DNA of 53,101 bases from Tortispora ganteri. Taxonomy: Eukaryota. Shown one piece after another: positions 21,319 through 52,713 of this stretch. Numbering within the stretch: the stretch's first letter is position 1; every line of letters begins with the position of its first letter. The position numbers and the translations under genes were made by a program. Below the pieces are notes generated by a model that was given only the letters and a program-made list of their open reading frames with translations, ran no database searches and was not told where the DNA came from. The stretch covers positions 1 through 53,101 of the forward strand of contig PPNB01000039.1 of assembly GCA_003707115.1 (NCBI GenBank), in the 5' to 3' direction.

Positions 21319-22377
21319 ATGAAACTTCACAACGCTATTCTCTTCACAGCTGGTGCTCTTGCAGCACAGAATCCTGTTAATACTAATGTCTGGACGTCTA
21401 CTCTATCAAACGGTCAGAAACAACTCGAAACACCGACTGTAGTTGATGCAGTCGTTATCCATGCTAGTCCTCCTTCGACAACTGACCCAGCTGTTACTAC
21501 ACCTTGGGTTTCAATCGACGGTTCCGGTATTCCGACCTATGTTATTCCTACTATCTACACCACGACTCTATCCGATTCATCGATAGTGTACTCTACCGCC
21601 AGCGCCTCGCCAACTACGCCTTCCGGTTATCCTACGCCTTCTTTTTCTCCTCCTGTTCTCCAATGTTTCCCGGCAAATGTGCCCACCGATATTCGTGGTG
21701 ACCCGTTCTGTGCGCCACTGAACGGCACAGAGATGCTTCTCGGAGAGAGCTACTTCCTCACATGGAACCCTCTCGTTTGGGGTGAAGGCAATGATATCAC
21801 TCGCGTTCGTCTCAGAGGTCGTAGTCTTCCTCTTGATGCCAATGAAGACGAAATCTTCAACACAGGCTGGATAAGCAATAATGATGGATATTACATTTTC
21901 ACTGTCACCAGCGACATGTTCACCCGATCTGATTTCGAAGGATATTTCTTCCTTTCTATAACTCCACAGGTTCCTAGCGATTCTAATGCCTCCAACACCG
22001 CCACTATGTCAGGACCAATTCTTCGTATTATTAAATCAAAGAGTGACGCTATCACTACTATTAACCGTGTGCCTTCTGACAATACTATGCCTTCTGTCTC
22101 TGGTAGCGGCGGGTCGAGCAAGAGTGGCATATCAGGAGGCCAGATCGCTGCTGCTGTTATTGTACCTGTCGTCGTCGTTGCAATGGCTATAGCCGCTTTC
22201 TTCTACCTTCGTAAACATGGTGGACTTAAATCATGTGCCTGCGTCTCTGGCCGCAACGGCAATGGATACATGGGCTCGCGCACTCAAAGAATGTCTGTTG
22301 CTGGAGGTACGCTTCCTGCTTCTGAACTCGAACTCGACAGGTCTGAATCAAGACGATCTGTCGAAAATCCTTTCTGA
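21319..22377 (+). CDS. Second Psg1/Ykl077w-family type I membrane protein
   Basis: Signal peptide MKLHNAILFTAGALA; WTST..TPTVVDAV; PWVSIDGSGIP; PVLQC; PFCAP; YFLTWNP; GPIL; TM helix; tail ending NPF. Motif order matches the 12583-13833 protein. Confidence 0.8.
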   Translation: MKLHNAILFTAGALAAQNPVNTNVWTSTLSNGQKQLETPTVVDAVVIHASPPSTTDPAVTTPWVSIDGSGIPTYVIPTIYTTTLSDSSIVYSTASASPTTPSGYPTPSFSPPVLQCFPANVPTDIRGDPFCAPLNGTEMLLGESYFLTWNPLVWGEGNDITRVRLRGRSLPLDANEDEIFNTGWISNNDGYYIFTVTSDMFTRSDFEGYFFLSITPQVPSDSNASNTATMSGPILRIIKSKSDAITTINRVPSDNTMPSVSGSGGSSKSGISGGQIAAAVIVPVVVVAMAIAAFFYLRKHGGLKSCACVSGRNGNGYMGSRTQRMSVAGGTLPASELELDRSESRRSVENPF

Positions 22378-22458: not shown

Positions 22459-24456
22459 CTACTCCAATTTCCGTCTGTCAGCCGCATCGTACAACCACCC
22501 GAGCAAAATCTCACCGCGTTGTCGTCTCTGTTCCTTCTCTGCGATACTTTGTGCCCACAGACCAGCAAACTTGAAGTAAAATCCAGATTTAAACGATTTC
22601 GCAGTTAGCATAGCCTGCAACAGGCCCTTCGGCCGTGCCTTGTAGCTGGTATTCGTCTTAATTAGCTGCGCATACACCTGGTGTGCGTGGTCGTACTCGC
22701 CAGATGCAGCTAAAGCATTAGCAGCAATCATATATACATAGTGCACCTCGTCTTCGCCCACGTTTTTCATATATTTGGGAATAATGTCGCAAAAATCGCG
22801 TAGCAGTGACCGCAGACCCAATGCTTTTAAAACTTCGATAATGCGTCCCACTTGTCCAGCAGTCAACCGTTTAGTATTGTCGAGGTAGCTAGAGATCCGT
22901 TCATTTGCGTATTCGGAGAATGAGTGGGGAGAAGTAGTGGCTTTGTATGCTTCCAAATCGCTCACAATCTGGTGCCAGTGCACTATATCGGTGAATCGTG
23001 CAAGCTGGTTACGATTGACAAGAGAGTCACATTCCTCAATAAAATTGAGTGCATCAGCATACAGTTTGTTGTCGCAGTAACCGCGGACCATTGCTCCAGC
23101 GAAGCTGTGATCTATGTTAGCACTGACAAGTTGGCGTCGGATATCTGTGAAATGCTGCTCAGCATCCGCAACAAGCCCGCGAGACATCATCAAGTTGATC
23201 GTGTTGATGCGAGTCTGCTTGTCATTGTCCTGGAAGACACTAGAACCGTTGAGTAGATAGAGCCGACCGTCTTGGTATGTCCAATGTCTTAGCAAAGCGG
23301 TCAGCTCGTAGTTTATAAGGTATGCATTACGCTCATGGATATATGCGCAGCATGCTTCTAAAGATTTGGCAGACATATTTGCGTAAGTTCGGGCAAATAT
23401 AAAAAGGCGCGTGACTAGGTTCGCATCAAGAATTTTGATGTTGTACAGTGCTTTGAGCGGGTCAGAGGAGTGATCGGAGAGCGATAGGAATAAAAGCTGT
23501 GCGGCGATTTGTGGTGACTGAACATCCTCTAAAGACATTACAGAAAGAACATCTTGTACGGAGTATGTTTGGTTGAGGTTTTGTCTATGTGTGAGCAAGG
23601 CTGCAGCGAGGTCTGGAGTGACTTTCGTGCCGAGATTGGATATAGAGTCTCTAACAGACTCGAATGCAGGCTGATTGCGGGTGCGACCATAAAAGTTAAG
23701 TTGGTAGGTAGCAATTAAAGGGTGTAGAAGTAGGCGTGATTGTTTGAGGTATGAGAGAATAGATTTGAGATGTTTTGTATTACGAGACTCGAGACAGGCC
23801 TGGAGTACAGCGGCAGATGTGAAGACATCAGGTTTGATGAGTTTAAGTTGCATATCATAGAATAAATGCATGACCTGTTCGATATCCTTTGAAGCGTTCC
23901 AGTAACCTTTAATGATTGTGTTATATGAGATGACGTCCGGCGTAGCGAGACCAAGTTGCATCTGCGAGAAGAATTCTTTAGCCATTAGCATTGAACCTTG
24001 TTCGATGCAAGACTGGAGAAGCAAGTTGCATATTTGTGTAGATACGCAGTCATTTTCTACGGCCTGAACGAATATCTCATTAGCGAATTCCCAGTCTCTT
24101 GAACGGACTGCATTGTATAGTACATGTTGGAGTGGAATTTGATTAAGGTCCGAGAGTGGAAGGTACTTTCCAATTTCGGTGGCGTGAAAGAAGAAACCCA
24201 AAGATTCACAATGTGCCAGAAGTGCCGTAAGAGGTGCACCATTAAGATTAAATTGTCTGTTTTCGAGCTCTTTGAGTGTTCTGAGCAATTCATTTGGCTG
24301 ATTTGATCGTGCAAGGAAAAGCAGTCGTGGAACGCCGTCAGGTGGCAGAGGTCGACGTTGAGGGGCAGGTGATCGTTTAAGTGATTCTGACAGACCGTAA
24401 TAACTAAACAGCCGTCGACCCTTCGTATATAAAGGCTTCCTAAAGCCATTTAACAT
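22459..24456 (-). CDS. Mitochondrial pentatricopeptide-repeat (PPR) protein
   Basis: Basic presequence; PPR motifs PDVISYNTIIKGY...F.DM...IKPDVFTSAAVLQAC and SFAGAMVRGYCDN. Confidence 0.85.
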   Translation of the reverse strand: MLNGFRKPLYTKGRRLFSYYGLSESLKRSPAPQRRPLPPDGVPRLLFLARSNQPNELLRTLKELENRQFNLNGAPLTALLAHCESLGFFFHATEIGKYLPLSDLNQIPLQHVLYNAVRSRDWEFANEIFVQAVENDCVSTQICNLLLQSCIEQGSMLMAKEFFSQMQLGLATPDVISYNTIIKGYWNASKDIEQVMHLFYDMQLKLIKPDVFTSAAVLQACLESRNTKHLKSILSYLKQSRLLLHPLIATYQLNFYGRTRNQPAFESVRDSISNLGTKVTPDLAAALLTHRQNLNQTYSVQDVLSVMSLEDVQSPQIAAQLLFLSLSDHSSDPLKALYNIKILDANLVTRLFIFARTYANMSAKSLEACCAYIHERNAYLINYELTALLRHWTYQDGRLYLLNGSSVFQDNDKQTRINTINLMMSRGLVADAEQHFTDIRRQLVSANIDHSFAGAMVRGYCDNKLYADALNFIEECDSLVNRNQLARFTDIVHWHQIVSDLEAYKATTSPHSFSEYANERISSYLDNTKRLTAGQVGRIIEVLKALGLRSLLRDFCDIIPKYMKNVGEDEVHYVYMIAANALAASGEYDHAHQVYAQLIKTNTSYKARPKGLLQAMLTAKSFKSGFYFKFAGLWAQSIAEKEQRRQRGEILLGWLYDAADRRKLE

Positions 24457-24568
24457 GTGAAAAGGCCAATATTGTAATGTAGTGAGCGGTCAGAGTGTAG
24501 TTAGGGTGGGGGGCTGATTTTGAGTTACAATAAGTAATACACTCAGATTTCGACTTTTTCGCTTAAAA

Positions 24569-26167
24569 ATGGCGAAAAAACCGCCATTGCCCGTTTACAA
24601 AGATCATAATTTTGCTGCTAAAAAGAAAATACGGTTTAATAGAAGATATATAATTATTTTTATTGTCTTCATATTCCTATTGTACCTGTTGTGGCCAGCG
24701 CAGTCCACTTCTCGAGTAAGACGCGAAGGTGCTAAAGGGTCGACGGACCTTGCTCTCGTTAAATCGACATCGTTACGCCAGGAAACTGTTCGTGATGTCT
24801 TCAGACAGTCATGGGAAGCCTATTATAAACAAGCATTTGGATATGATGAATATATGCCTCTTACTCATTCTGGTGCAGGCGGTCTCGACAAATCAGCAGT
24901 AGGCTCTATTATTGTCGATGCGCTGGACACTATGATCATCATGGATTTGCCACAAGAAAGTAGCCAGGCGCGCGAATGGGTCTCGAGCAATTTGAAATAT
25001 GATCATGATATTCAACTTAATACTTTCGACACAACTACTCGTCTTTTAGGCGGCCTTCTATCCGCTTATTATCTGTCCAAAGAAGACTTGTACCTGGACC
25101 GCGCCGTACAACTCGGAAACCGGCTTTTGACCGCGTTCAAGTCAACTTCTGCGCTACCCAGCGTTGAATTTAACTTGAAATCAGGAGCTGAGTCTGCAGA
25201 ATCTGCCGCCATAAGCTTAACAACGTCTATAGGTGCCGCCTCACTACAACTAGAGCTCAACTACTTGTCTTATATAGTCGGTGAGTCGCTCTACAAAGAC
25301 AAGGCTGATGCACTGAACAAATTATTTGCATCATACCATGTGGATGCTGCTCTATTGCAAAATACTCTCAATGTCTACGATAACACCGTCATGGGCTCTG
25401 CTATTAGTCTAGGGTCGGGCGCCGTTGTCCACTACTCAGGTCTCTTAAAACAGTACTTACAATCGAATGGTGCTGAAAAGGAGCTCAAACGGTTTTACAA
25501 CAATGCTACTGCATCAATAAGGGAACGACTTGTACAGAAATCGCCGACAAAGGGCTATACGTACATTGCAGAGCTGCCTTTTGGGCTTGATGGAGAGATC
25601 ATCCCAAAAATGGACCATTCTGTTTGCTCGTTTTCCGGTACACTGGCTTTAGGAGCTGCTAAAGCGAATTCTAAAGACAACAGTGACCTACGTTTAGCTT
25701 TTGAGCTTGCACGTACATGCATGGCAATGTATACGAATGCGGCCTCAGGACTGGCTCCTGCGGTGATTTTCTTTAATAATACGCAGTCCGACGACGCAGA
25801 TGACATGCTTATTAAACCAGCATACGCACAAAATCTACAGAGTGCTGACACTGTGGAGTCATTATTTATTCTATGGCGGATAACAGGAGATACTGTATAC
25901 CGAGAGTGGGGTTGGCGAATATTTGTGAACTTCGTGGAACAGACGCGTGTGCCTGGAGGCAGCTCTGCGCGAGGGTTTTGTGCAGTTGAAGATGTGACAA
26001 AGAATCCAGCAAAACTACAGAACCGAATGGACCCAGCATGGATGGCCAAGACGCTAAAGTTCCTTTACCTGCTTTTTGACGACGAAGACACGCTGCCTTT
26101 AGATGAAGTCGTATTCAGCGCGGGTGGACACCCATTCCCACGATTCACAACAGACACTACAAATTAA
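24569..26167 (+). CDS. GH47 alpha-1,2-mannosidase-like (Mns1-like) type II membrane protein, predicted catalytically inactive
   Basis: SWEAY...AFGYDEY.P; IIVDALDTM; RLLGGLLSAY; KMDH.VC; TVESLF..WR.TGD..YREWGW; TLK.LYLLF. The acidic active-site residues are substituted (see findings). Confidence 0.88.
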   Translation: MAKKPPLPVYKDHNFAAKKKIRFNRRYIIIFIVFIFLLYLLWPAQSTSRVRREGAKGSTDLALVKSTSLRQETVRDVFRQSWEAYYKQAFGYDEYMPLTHSGAGGLDKSAVGSIIVDALDTMIIMDLPQESSQAREWVSSNLKYDHDIQLNTFDTTTRLLGGLLSAYYLSKEDLYLDRAVQLGNRLLTAFKSTSALPSVEFNLKSGAESAESAAISLTTSIGAASLQLELNYLSYIVGESLYKDKADALNKLFASYHVDAALLQNTLNVYDNTVMGSAISLGSGAVVHYSGLLKQYLQSNGAEKELKRFYNNATASIRERLVQKSPTKGYTYIAELPFGLDGEIIPKMDHSVCSFSGTLALGAAKANSKDNSDLRLAFELARTCMAMYTNAASGLAPAVIFFNNTQSDDADDMLIKPAYAQNLQSADTVESLFILWRITGDTVYREWGWRIFVNFVEQTRVPGGSSARGFCAVEDVTKNPAKLQNRMDPAWMAKTLKFLYLLFDDEDTLPLDEVVFSAGGHPFPRFTTDTTN

Positions 26168-26336: not shown

Positions 26337-26540
26337 TTATCGGAGACGACGAGCTTCACGCTCAGATTCAAGAAGACACAGGATATCGTTCTCGCGGACT
26401 GGTCCCTTTACGTTGCGGATAATGGATCTGGAGGTATCGTCCATGAATTCAACACGAACTTGGGTAACTCCACCACGGGAACCAGTACGTCCCAATACTT
26501 TGACAACGCGAGCAAGTTTGACTGGAGTTTTAGCATCCAT
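26337..26540 (-). CDS. RPS28: 40S ribosomal protein S28 (eS28)
   Basis: [32 protein letters not shown]...[25 protein letters not shown]. Confidence 0.99.
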
Positions 26541-26865: not shown

Positions 26866-27435
26866 TCAGAGCTCGTCATTGGGCGGGGTAAGCAGACCAG
26901 AGTCGACAATAACAACTTTTTTGACAGGTTTGTCGCGTGAAGTCTTAGAGTTCTGGATTTGGTCAACAACCTCGTAGCCGCTGATGACCTCACCAAAGAC
27001 AACATGACGGTTGTCGAGCCAAGGAGTGGCAACAGTGGTAATAAAGAACTGCGATCCGTTGGTATCTTTACCTGCGTTGGCCATTGATAGAAGACCCTTG
27101 CGATCGTGAGGGATTTCAAAGCTCTCGTCAGCAAACTTACCACCCCAGATTGACTTGCCTCCAGTGCCGTCGCCGCGAGTAAAATCGCCACCTTGGATCA
27201 TGAAATCCTTTATAACGCGGTGAAACGAGGATCCCTTGTAACCAAAGCCTTCACTGCCAGTAGCTAAACCGACAAAGTTCTCTACGGTCTTAGGTACCAC
27301 GTCACCGTATAATCCCATCACAATGCGACCTAAACGCTCGCCACCCTGCTCGATATCGAAATAGACCTTTTGAGTAATCTCACGTGCATACACAGTTACA
27401 GCAAAAAGGGTAAAAATCAGTCCTAGCAGTCTCAT
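26866..27435 (-). CDS. CPR5: ER-luminal cyclophilin B (Cpr5/Cpr2-like peptidyl-prolyl isomerase)
   Basis: Signal peptide [50 protein letters not shown]-terminal NDEL. Confidence 0.88.
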
Positions 27436-50853: not shown

Positions 50854-52713
50854 ATGCATACTGTAACTGATATCAAGACATTTCTCTGTGAACCTCCGGT
50901 AGAAACAACTACCGTTTACGGTCGCGTTTATTCAACCAGTTCGGGTGTCGTGACAGCTTACGACGCTAATTGTGATAAGGAAGTCATATCAACTGATGGC
51001 TGGTATTGTTGTCAATGTGTACCCACTGTTATCAGCTATGTCCCCTGTCCTGACGACTACAGTCATTATGTATGGGGATTTTACGAGAGAATCGACATTT
51101 CTGTGAGTGTGAATATTGATATCAGTATAGAAGTCCCTGTAGTAGTGACCGTCGTCACTTCTACAATTGGTTCAACTGATACAATTGTGCCCCCTAGTAC
51201 TACAACTAGTACTACAACTAGTGTACCCACTAGTACTACAACAAGTACTACAAGTACAACACAATCATTTGATTCAGACCTGTGTGTTTCTATTCCACCA
51301 TACACTGCTGGTGTGGTATATGCTGCTGCATATTATACCGATTATAGAGATTTTGAATATATCGCTAATGGTGAGTATCGAGCAGTTGAATCTACCCCTA
51401 TTGATACATCAATCGAAAGTTTTGGAATACTTGTCGAACAAATGCTTTATCAACCTTTAATCGAAGTAATGTTTTATGCGAGTGGTACATTTGAGATTTC
51501 ACAGCTTCTTTCCACTGTTGAAACCTCATATGGATATATATTTATTGGCCAATCTGCAATGTCATGCAATGATATAAAAGAGATTGGTTCTGGAGGGCAA
51601 GTATATCAAGGAAACTTGAACGGCGGTTGGAATATTACCCTGAATTTCACCGGTCAATGGTATCCGATAAGAATAGTTGTTGTACATCCTATTGAGGCTG
51701 GTAGAAAACGGCAAGCTGGACAACTGTTTGTTGACATGACTGGCCAATATGATATCGTTGGTGAATTAGCACAGAGTTCTACAGGCTCAGTTAGCTCAGT
51801 GAATCCTAAACCTTCATTTAGCTCCTTTAGTCATGTTAGTTCTCATTCTATATCAAGTTCAACGGACTCATCTATCTATGTGAACTCGGCTAAATCAAGC
51901 AGCTTGGTTACTCATACTACTTCGCTTAGTCTTACAAGTTCTGTTAGCTCAGAGGTATTGAGTTCTTCTTATTCTGAGATCTCATCTAGCTCTGAAAGTT
52001 CAGATGTTTCTAGTACTGCTAGCTCTGATATATCTAGCATTTCTAGCCCTATTACATCTAGCATCCCTAGCTCTGAAAGCTCTGCTGTCTCTAGCTCTGA
52101 AAGTTCTGCTGTCTCTAGTTCTGAAAGTTCTGCTGTCTCTAGTTCGGAAAGCTCATCTAGCATCACTAGTGTTTTTAGCTCTTTTGAAACTGTTGATGTC
52201 TATTGCACTTCACAACCATCAGGAATTCTCGAGAGTTATCGTGCTGATATATATACAGACGTGAAGATCAGCTCATATTCAGCAGAAGAGATTGCAAACG
52301 GAATCTACAGAGAGAACAAGAGAACTATACGAAGGACTTCGCTGGTCATGTCCGATGAATTAGAGGTAACGTACGACGCTCCAAGTTTGATAGAGTTGAC
52401 AGTTTACGTGAAAGGCCAGAACGTGTTGTCGCATATAACTGAAGATTCTGGCTATATGCTGCCTGATTCGTACTACCTCTTTGTCGGAACTAATGCTATG
52501 ACATGTACAAACATGCAAAGTATTGGCACTGAAGGGTACAATGCGTCTAATCCTGGCCGTAGCGATACCTGGTCTCTTAACCTCGCTCTTGTTCAAGCGG
52601 ATGGGTGGTATCCGATACGTGTTGTAGCCTCTCCGCAGATTTCTACTCTCGGTAATGTAGCGTTCTCTGTGAAGTTTGACTCGAAAATCTATGCGATGAT
52701 TATTCCTGTCTAG
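50854..52713 (+). CDS. Adhesin-like Ser/Thr-rich protein with two PA14/GLEYA-like domains; N-terminus uncertain
   Basis: Internal duplication (IANG.YR, LIE, YxFxG..AM.C, W, G.WYPIR.V), Thr-rich and Ser-rich linkers, Cys-rich N-terminal segment. Confidence 0.7.
   Translation: MHTVTDIKTFLCEPPVETTTVYGRVYSTSSGVVTAYDANCDKEVISTDGWYCCQCVPTVISYVPCPDDYSHYVWGFYERIDISVSVNIDISIEVPVVVTVVTSTIGSTDTIVPPSTTTSTTTSVPTSTTTSTTSTTQSFDSDLCVSIPPYTAGVVYAAAYYTDYRDFEYIANGEYRAVESTPIDTSIESFGILVEQMLYQPLIEVMFYASGTFEISQLLSTVETSYGYIFIGQSAMSCNDIKEIGSGGQVYQGNLNGGWNITLNFTGQWYPIRIVVVHPIEAGRKRQAGQLFVDMTGQYDIVGELAQSSTGSVSSVNPKPSFSSFSHVSSHSISSSTDSSIYVNSAKSSSLVTHTTSLSLTSSVSSEVLSSSYSEISSSSESSDVSSTASSDISSISSPITSSIPSSESSAVSSSESSAVSSSESSAVSSSESSSSITSVFSSFETVDVYCTSQPSGILESYRADIYTDVKISSYSAEEIANGIYRENKRTIRRTSLVMSDELEVTYDAPSLIELTVYVKGQNVLSHITEDSGYMLPDSYYLFVGTNAMTCTNMQSIGTEGYNASNPGRSDTWSLNLALVQADGWYPIRVVASPQISTLGNVAFSVKFDSKIYAMIIPV
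51194..51260 (+). repeat. Degenerate 12-bp coding repeats (STTT)
   Basis: Repeated ctagtactacaa units. Confidence 0.75.
52067..52154 (+). repeat. 24-bp coding minisatellite (SSSESSAV), about 3.7 copies
   Basis: ctag(c/t)tctgaaag(c/t)tctgctgtct units starting at 52067, 52091 and 52115, with a partial unit at 52139. Confidence 0.9.

Follow-up and report, generated by a model that had tools for sequence, protein, structure and literature searches.

The closest described counterparts of the gene analysed here are the endoplasmic reticulum (ER) alpha-1,2-mannosidases I of family GH47, namely Mns1 of Saccharomyces cerevisiae and MAN1B1 (ERManI) of humans, both of which are active enzymes. The Mns1 of Schizosaccharomyces pombe, another UGGT-containing yeast, is said in work by Movsichoff et al. 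from 2005 to have very weak activity and to be needed for ER-associated degradation (ERAD), where it was proposed to act as a lectin. Other partial precedents for a role beyond catalysis come from the literature. A non-enzymatic role of MAN1B1 in Golgi-based quality control has been proposed and mapped to its tail and stem (PMC7835635), inactive EDEM1 mutants still promote ERAD, and S. cerevisiae Mnl2 (YLR057W) is a mannosidase-like ERAD protein for which no in vitro activity was seen (PMC9547274); the S. pombe ER still trims off mannose i (PMC3103398). The present analysis concerns positions 24569-26167 (plus strand) of a 53,101-nucleotide stretch of the Tortispora ganteri genome (assembly GCA_003707115.1, contig PPNB01000039.1), the whole of which is called the window. 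As read from its sequence, the encoded protein is Mns1/ERManI by descent and stands outside the active GH47 enzymes by its catalytic features. At about even odds (a probability near 0.5), the gene is this lineage's own Mns1 turned into a pseudoenzyme with a glycan-independent quality-control role in the ER or cis-Golgi.

The locus resembles each of these systems in part only. With S. cerevisiae Mns1 and human MAN1B1 it shares the predicted fold, the type II anchor, the scaffold motifs and the phylogenetic branch, whereas its pocket is largely changed and no active copy was found beside it. MAN1B1 belongs to the same subfamily and also has a cytosolic tail motif, but its side role comes on top of enzyme activity, while in Tortispora catalysis appears erased and the barrel kept. 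The S. pombe protein is described as weak rather than dead, and the Tortispora pocket is devoid of the residues with which a lectin would bind sugar. Mnl2 comes as a third gene in addition to an active Mns1, whereas the window protein groups with Mns1; the searches returned no protein under the name Mnl2. Htm1/Mnl1/EDEM proteins share the GH47 barrel, but in T. ganteri Htm1 is a separate locus with intact catalytic residues. Full-text literature searches, with subscription papers and supplements mostly outside their scope, returned no description of the window protein or of a dead sole Mns1. The one paper found to link Tortispora with mannosidases covers selection in the genus and mentions DCW1 (PMC11449361), and its supplementary selection tables may bear on the gene.

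The barrel and its pocket

The first-pass annotation had described a full-length 532-residue type II membrane protein that keeps the GH47 scaffold, and this description held. The intronless coding sequence is one uninterrupted frame from ATG to TAA with 0 internal stops. Profile PF01532 matches residues 78-525 (24800..26143) over positions 2-455 of its 455, with 399 bits and an E-value of 3.8e-119, and the protein stops 7 residues past this domain, without the Cys-bearing Pdi1-binding loop of Htm1/Mnl1/EDEM. A single hydrophobic segment at about residues 27-44 (24647..24700), preceded by a basic stretch, forms the predicted type II anchor (Kyte-Doolittle 19-mer maximum of 2.3 at residue 28; helix 26-46 in the predicted model). 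The closest solved structures are those of human ERManI and yeast Mns1 (E 1e-83 to 1e-70). An AlphaFold2 model (mean pLDDT 79.6, pTM 0.81), built from a 15-sequence alignment and therefore of a kind that can mirror the alignment more than the protein, predicts the (alpha/alpha)7 barrel with its C-terminal hairpin; Foldseek placed it on human ERManI (1fo2) with an rmsd of 1.8 Å and a TM-score of 0.93 by target length, and the rmsd to 1fo2 and 1dl2 ranged over 1.8-2.5 Å. The conserved cysteine pair C353 and C384 (the latter at 25718-25720) is retained, and presumably corresponds to the disulfide of yeast Mns1. An assembly error or frameshift was ruled out by the single open frame and by the identical pocket states found in Tortispora caseinolytica; Logan contigs of runs X1 and X2 cover the stretch with 0 differing letters, and are possibly themselves the source of the window.

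The pocket is described below with human residue numbers, transferred manually from an alignment with PDB 1fo2. R461 takes part in B-branch specificity, and the remaining pocket residues likewise have known roles beside the ten considered next. Those of E330, R334, D463, E570, H593, R597, E599, E663, T688 and E689 have been described (bioRxiv 10.1101/2025.01.29.635535, PMC12550843, PMC12904022, PMC7835635): E570 forms a salt bridge with R597, which orients the glycan and counts, like R461, towards B-branch specificity, T688 is a direct Ca2+ ligand, and R597, E599, E663, T688 and E689 contact the mannose in canonical enzymes, with R597, E663 and E689 lying in the -1 subsite. In the window protein the general-acid position E330 is shortened to D154, next to the kept R334 (R158; 25028..25042). 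Residues 284-290 (G284-A-V286-V287-H-Y-S290, 25418..25438) have lost R461, D463, S464 and E467. In H350-S351-V-C353-S354 (25616..25630) H524 and the cysteine are kept while L525 and F528 have both become serine. E570 is replaced by A398 (25760..25762), so that the R597:E570 salt bridge is missing on both sides, since S425-A-D427-T-V-E430 (25841..25858) has lost R597 to S425; the same segment has the catalytic base E599 as Asp and retains E602. Further on, F659 is A490 and E663 is K494, with its charge reversed (26036..26050), and in S517-A518-G519 (26117..26125) T688 and E689 are both lost. E397 (G222), D591 (Y419) and H593 (Q421) complete the changes. All six motif changes listed by the first-pass annotation were found where it had placed them, and those at E397, R461, S464, E467, L525, F528, D591, H593 and F659 go beyond its list. 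Altogether, 17 of 20 pocket sites differ from canonical Mns1/ERManI, D463, T688, E663 and R597 included, and R334, H524 and E602 are retained.

The departure was measured against 119 canonical relatives, in which 136 columns are at least 95% conserved, 131 of them in the domain. The window protein retains 89 of the 136 and is changed at 47, while the relatives are changed at 0.5 columns in the median and at 14 at most, counts that are biased low because the same relatives defined the columns. The losses concentrate in the active site, as had been proposed from the motifs alone: changes hit 9 of the 10 literature-named residues and 38 of the 121 remaining conserved columns (Fisher p=4e-4), and with a wider pocket list, drawn up in part from general knowledge and not blind, the figures are 18/21 against 29/110 (p=4e-7).

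Whether equivalent acids persist in the site, a point that the first-pass annotation had set against its own proposal, received a divided answer, with D463 lost to valine and both catalytic Glu positions, E330 and E599, still acidic as Asp. Together with the retained R334, this leaves room for a residual or altered hydrolase in which Asp154, Asp427 and Glu430 would support weak, metal-free cleavage. Such a hydrolase is very unlikely, however, as D463 and the Ca2+ ligand T688 are gone, single substitutions at the D463 or E330 equivalent abolish activity in Mnl1/EDEM proteins, E330, D463 and E599 are invariant as E, D and E in 119/119 canonical relatives, and Asp occurs at E330 or E599 in 0 of these 119 plus 79 further canonical-type relatives. 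The protein is very likely dead as a mannosidase. The lectin role that had been suggested for it fared poorly, since the mannose- and Ca2+-binding residues were lost together with the catalytic ones, which argues against a simple lectin; a canonical lectin function is unlikely and a Ca2+-free pseudoenzyme is the best reading.

Descent, copy number and the glycan pathway

The closest relative is a T. caseinolytica protein (P0002, an N-terminally partial record) with 90% identity, followed by canonical fungal Mns1 proteins at 41-44%. Used as an independent check on the pocket states, P0002 matches the window protein at 19 of 20 pocket sites, which provides the second species with the same substitutions that the first-pass annotation had asked for. 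Among the relatives listed in the protein searches there were no more orthologues of the Tortispora lineage; 75 pattern matches in metagenome contigs yielded 0 confirmed orthologues, runs X3 and X5 gave short chance pieces only, and the ESM Atlas generic GH47 clusters only. An exact look-up of nine window proteins in the protein collection had 0 matches. A quick tree of 53 rows placed the window protein inside the ascomycete Mns1 group (support 99) and far from Htm1, and a careful one of 34 rows, with the pocket columns removed, gave the same placement (94/97); these trees, from which Golgi-type fungal GH47 proteins and Mnl2 were left out, do not fix its exact sister, the branch being long.

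The assembly (9.63 Mb in 1044 contigs) is fragmented. A PF01532 profile search of it recovered two loci only, and two queries with canonical proteins led back to this pair. RPET[VI]ES, a motif present in 107 of the 119 relatives, had 0 matches in the assembly when searched as a DNA pattern, and TE[AG]HP had 4, of which only that at the Htm1 locus is GH47. No separate canonical MNS1 was thus found by profile, protein or DNA-pattern searches of the assembly, and the case for a pseudoenzyme becomes stronger than first proposed: the only Mns1-type gene found in this fragmented assembly is not a spare copy. It could still be argued that the gene is an ordinary dead duplicate, with the active MNS1 hidden in an assembly gap, given the fragmentation, a completeness that is not stated and a genome search that scores only the best candidates. 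Against this, none of the searches of the assembly turned up a third GH47 gene, the best 120 of about 1,500 protein matches include a single Mns1-type protein of T. caseinolytica, and each of the ten other pathway genes looked for was recovered, which makes a hidden copy most improbable.

These genes comprise ALG3, four PF03901 genes (ALG9 and an ALG12-like one among them), UGGT with its catalytic motifs, a Yos9-like MRH protein, a glucosidase II beta-like protein and two PF04488 (OCH1-family) genes. Substrate loss through a truncated lipid-linked precursor was considered as a cause and rejected by gene presence, as ALG3, ALG9 and the ALG12-like gene all have long open frames. The UGGT-type gene (L013:487-3303) has a 1444-residue frame with DADQ, DQDLPN and IDLCNNP motifs and an HDEL end, and T. 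ganteri probably keeps the reglucosylation cycle.

The second GH47 locus (G000:C679, L002:1399-3114) is Htm1/Mnl1, a protein of 571 residues with intact equivalents of E330, D463, E599 and T688 and loop cysteines C501 and C559. It ends 12 residues past the second of these, without the C-terminal domain that the longer Htm1 proteins of Lipomyces and Sugiyamaella have (736-800 residues). A convergent gene, which we take to be APT1-like, ends 30 bp beyond its stop. Judging from the two proteins as predicted, both GH47 genes of the genome are remodelled. In S. cerevisiae the C-terminal domain of Htm1 is where misfolded clients bind, and ERAD is inactive without it (PMC12170172), so the dead barrel might supply in trans the client-binding domain missing from the short Htm1 and tether Htm1-Pdi1 to the membrane. 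Such a division of labour is quite improbable: short Htm1 forms are common (the 10th percentile of 119 match lengths is 571 residues), meaning that the shortening may have nothing to do with Mns1, and the analysis found no hydrophobic groove for clients described on a GH47 barrel. The T. caseinolytica Htm1 record is also short, at 512 residues with a different end. A complex prediction for the dead and the Htm1 barrels scored 0.00 in two runs in which alignments were not used, and counts neither for nor against the idea.

Constraint, decay and recurrence

Neutral evolution of the stem branch was simulated in 2000 runs starting from the present-day frame, with no indels and a transition bias of 3, until 29 of 110 scaffold columns had changed. 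The runs accumulated about 7 stops on average and left the frame open in 1/2000; pocket changes averaged about 5.5 of 21 with a maximum of 13, compared with the 18/21 and 0 stops observed. This rejects plain decay along the stem branch. The first-pass view of a pseudoenzyme rather than a pseudogene was borne out by this rejection, by the focus of the losses in the pocket, by the intact predicted fold and by the second species.

Pocket erasure is not confined to Tortispora. A search of 50%-identity representatives was examined for the best 150 of 7328 matches, 149 of them non-Tortispora, and two of the latter (P0211 and P0238) have at least 8 of 12 core residues changed; 78 of 79 additional canonical-type matches have 0 of 20 pocket sites changed. 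Gomphillus americanus is a member of the P0211 cluster, P0238 is a eukaryote-type protein, and in P0125, from Bogoriella megaspora, erasure is partial; Gomphillus and Bogoriella presumably belong to different classes. Of the 20 pocket sites, P0211 has 16 changed, P0238 13 and P0125 11. P0211 and P0125 fall together inside Pezizomycotina (100/98), and one ancient dead paralogue shared with these lichen fungi was rejected, a Tortispora+P0211+P0125 clade having p-AU 0.002 (with long branches), which gives the two a separate origin. The membership of the dead groups was recorded as P0211/P0389/P0391/P0392, P0125 and P0238/P0394, P0389 being labelled alpha-1,2-mannosidase. Another protein, P0170, has 4 of 12 core changes but a repeated internal stretch and was set aside. 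On a long branch, P0128 (Limtongia smithiae) shows 3 mild changes in 20 sites, carries E689Q and D591E, and possibly represents an early stage of the same process.

The dead lineages lose overlapping columns (p 3e-4 to 3e-6); in one comparison 30 are shared where 19 would be expected (p=5e-5). F528S occurs in all four dead forms and L525S in three, E663K is found in P0211 and P0238 too, and E663K, F528S and D485N (the last in window numbering) are common to three dead lineages; E602 and R/K334 are kept in all four. Other sites diverge, D463 having become V, V/I, K or N and T688 A, P or G. The persistence of the convergent changes over long branches suggests a structural reason. A rival reading is a remodelled pocket, that is, a Ca2+-free barrel serving as receptor or lectin of new specificity, whose ligand could be a different glycan epitope, a peptide or some small molecule, as might be suspected from the same new residues in separate lineages, the constant R/K334 and E602, and the 19 of 20 pocket residues common to both Tortispora species. 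But the changes go mostly to Gly, Ala, Ser and Val, that is, to removed side chains, the D463 and T688 replacements vary by lineage, the canonical mannose contacts are gone or altered, and pocket sharing between the two species is no higher than their overall 90% identity. A new binding specificity is, in our view, rather improbable. A broader and more tentative idea, which is somewhat unlikely but worth stating, is that Mns1/ERManI has a barrel-borne, glycan-independent function and that several eukaryote lineages independently stripped the enzyme down to it along one path, with Lys at E663 in place of Ca2+, F528S, and E602 kept; in Tortispora, the sole copy together with loss of the Htm1 client domain would leave no mannose timer.

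Several observations weigh against the reading of the gene as a selected pseudoenzyme. The window protein has lost the TGWxR motif that 104 of 119 relatives carry at the C-terminus. The domain differs between the two Tortispora species at 44/454 positions against 21/433 in Htm1 (p=0.0065), the differences are less conservative (mean BLOSUM62 of 0.11 against 0.90), and their avoidance of family-conserved columns is weak (p=0.19 and 0.08). When the recent split alone is modelled as neutral, 9% of 300 runs end with an open frame, and the stem branch is long even without the pocket columns (1.39 per site). A proxy for the pocket that needs no residue list, polar against non-polar conserved columns, gives 24/52 against 23/79 (p=0.06). 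Each of the convergent changes F>S, L>S and E>K needs just one transition, which leaves room for mutation bias, and the MAN1B1 role maps to tail and stem and thus does not itself explain why a barrel is retained. Constraint on the pseudoenzyme is looser than on the active Htm1. Distances from the window protein to the Mns1 of Lipomyces, Trichomonascus and Mucorales are about 1.0, compared with about 0.6 among those, while for Htm1 they are about 0.7 for T. ganteri and 0.6-0.7 among the others; the increase in rate is therefore gene-specific.

Taken together, roughly twice the Htm1 rate with more radical changes, a recent split compatible with neutrality, the long branch outside the pocket, the lost C-terminal motif and an Htm1 that is itself shortened, suggesting that the whole glycan timer is being simplified, would suit a slow decay in which Htm1 acting on Man9 made Mns1 catalysis dispensable, constraint relaxed and the gene survives as a relic. 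Set against it are the stem simulation and the retention of the tail motif, the anchor, the cysteine pair and two thirds or so of the conserved columns, with the domain frame open in both species, and a relic is on balance unlikely. It is very likely that selection kept the gene over the long branch, and probable that it still does so today.

Locus, proposed role and meaning

The surroundings of the gene are compact and yeast-like. A 112-bp intergenic gap (24457..24568) separates it head to head from a PPR gene (22459-24456, minus strand) and is likely a divergent promoter; the sequence context ahead of the ATG is A-rich. Downstream on the minus strand lie a 67-residue open reading frame (26337-26540), which we take to be ribosomal protein S28-like, and a cyclophilin (26866-27435) with a signal-like N-terminus and an NDEL end, which is probably ER-resident. 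Elsewhere in the window, two genes of the Psg1/Ykl077w family (Golgi membrane protein) lie less than 9 kb apart (12583-13833, minus; 21319-22377, plus), and a 619-residue frame at 50854-52713 (plus), skewed in codon composition and ending in a GLEYA domain, is adhesin-like.

The cytosolic tail carries LPVYKD at residues 7-12 (24587..24604), a retained form of the fungal Mns1 motif LP[LM]YKDKP that is present in 104 of 119 canonical relatives and reads LPVYKDHN here. Anchor and tail together would imply residence in the ER or cis-Golgi. The fungal motif resembles plant MNS3's Golgi-retention motif LPYS, a likeness drawn in this analysis, and LPYS has been described as unrelated to known yeast signals (PMC6697737, PMC12331695). 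The tail motif may thus have a sorting role, and LP[LM]YKDKP is possibly an undescribed fungal sorting signal.

Under the preferred reading, that of an Mns1 converted into a pseudoenzyme, GH47 chemistry predicts that the protein would bind neither Ca2+ nor terminal mannose and would not cut Man9 to Man8B. Lys494, with the retained Glu430 and Asp427, could replace the lost Ca2+ charge, allowing the barrel to stay folded, and glycoproteins would then exit the ER as Man9. The ERAD mark could be set by Htm1-Pdi1 trimming the C branch of Man9 directly, to be read by Yos9; in S. cerevisiae Htm1-Pdi1 can cut Man9 without Mns1 (bioRxiv 10.1101/049825), although at lower efficiency (bioRxiv 10.1101/049825; PMC9547274). 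What would be preserved, and this is the least certain step, is an older glycan-independent second job of Mns1: a tail-sorted membrane factor of the ER or cis-Golgi that may hold or retrieve misfolded clients or partners, in the manner of the non-enzymatic role of MAN1B1. The chances that such a membrane-tethered, glycan-independent role is the right one seem evenly balanced.

In summary, the feature is stronger than first described, being a sole copy and recurrent elsewhere, and weaker in its relaxed rate. Whether ERManI is a timer enzyme or also a non-catalytic factor is a long-running question that has mostly been studied by overexpressed point mutants. A naturally dead but retained sole copy would provide a ready separation-of-function allele, with the prediction that T. 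ganteri makes no Man8B, and the recurrence elsewhere suggests that database labels such as "alpha-1,2-mannosidase" mask a recurrent class of dead GH47 proteins.

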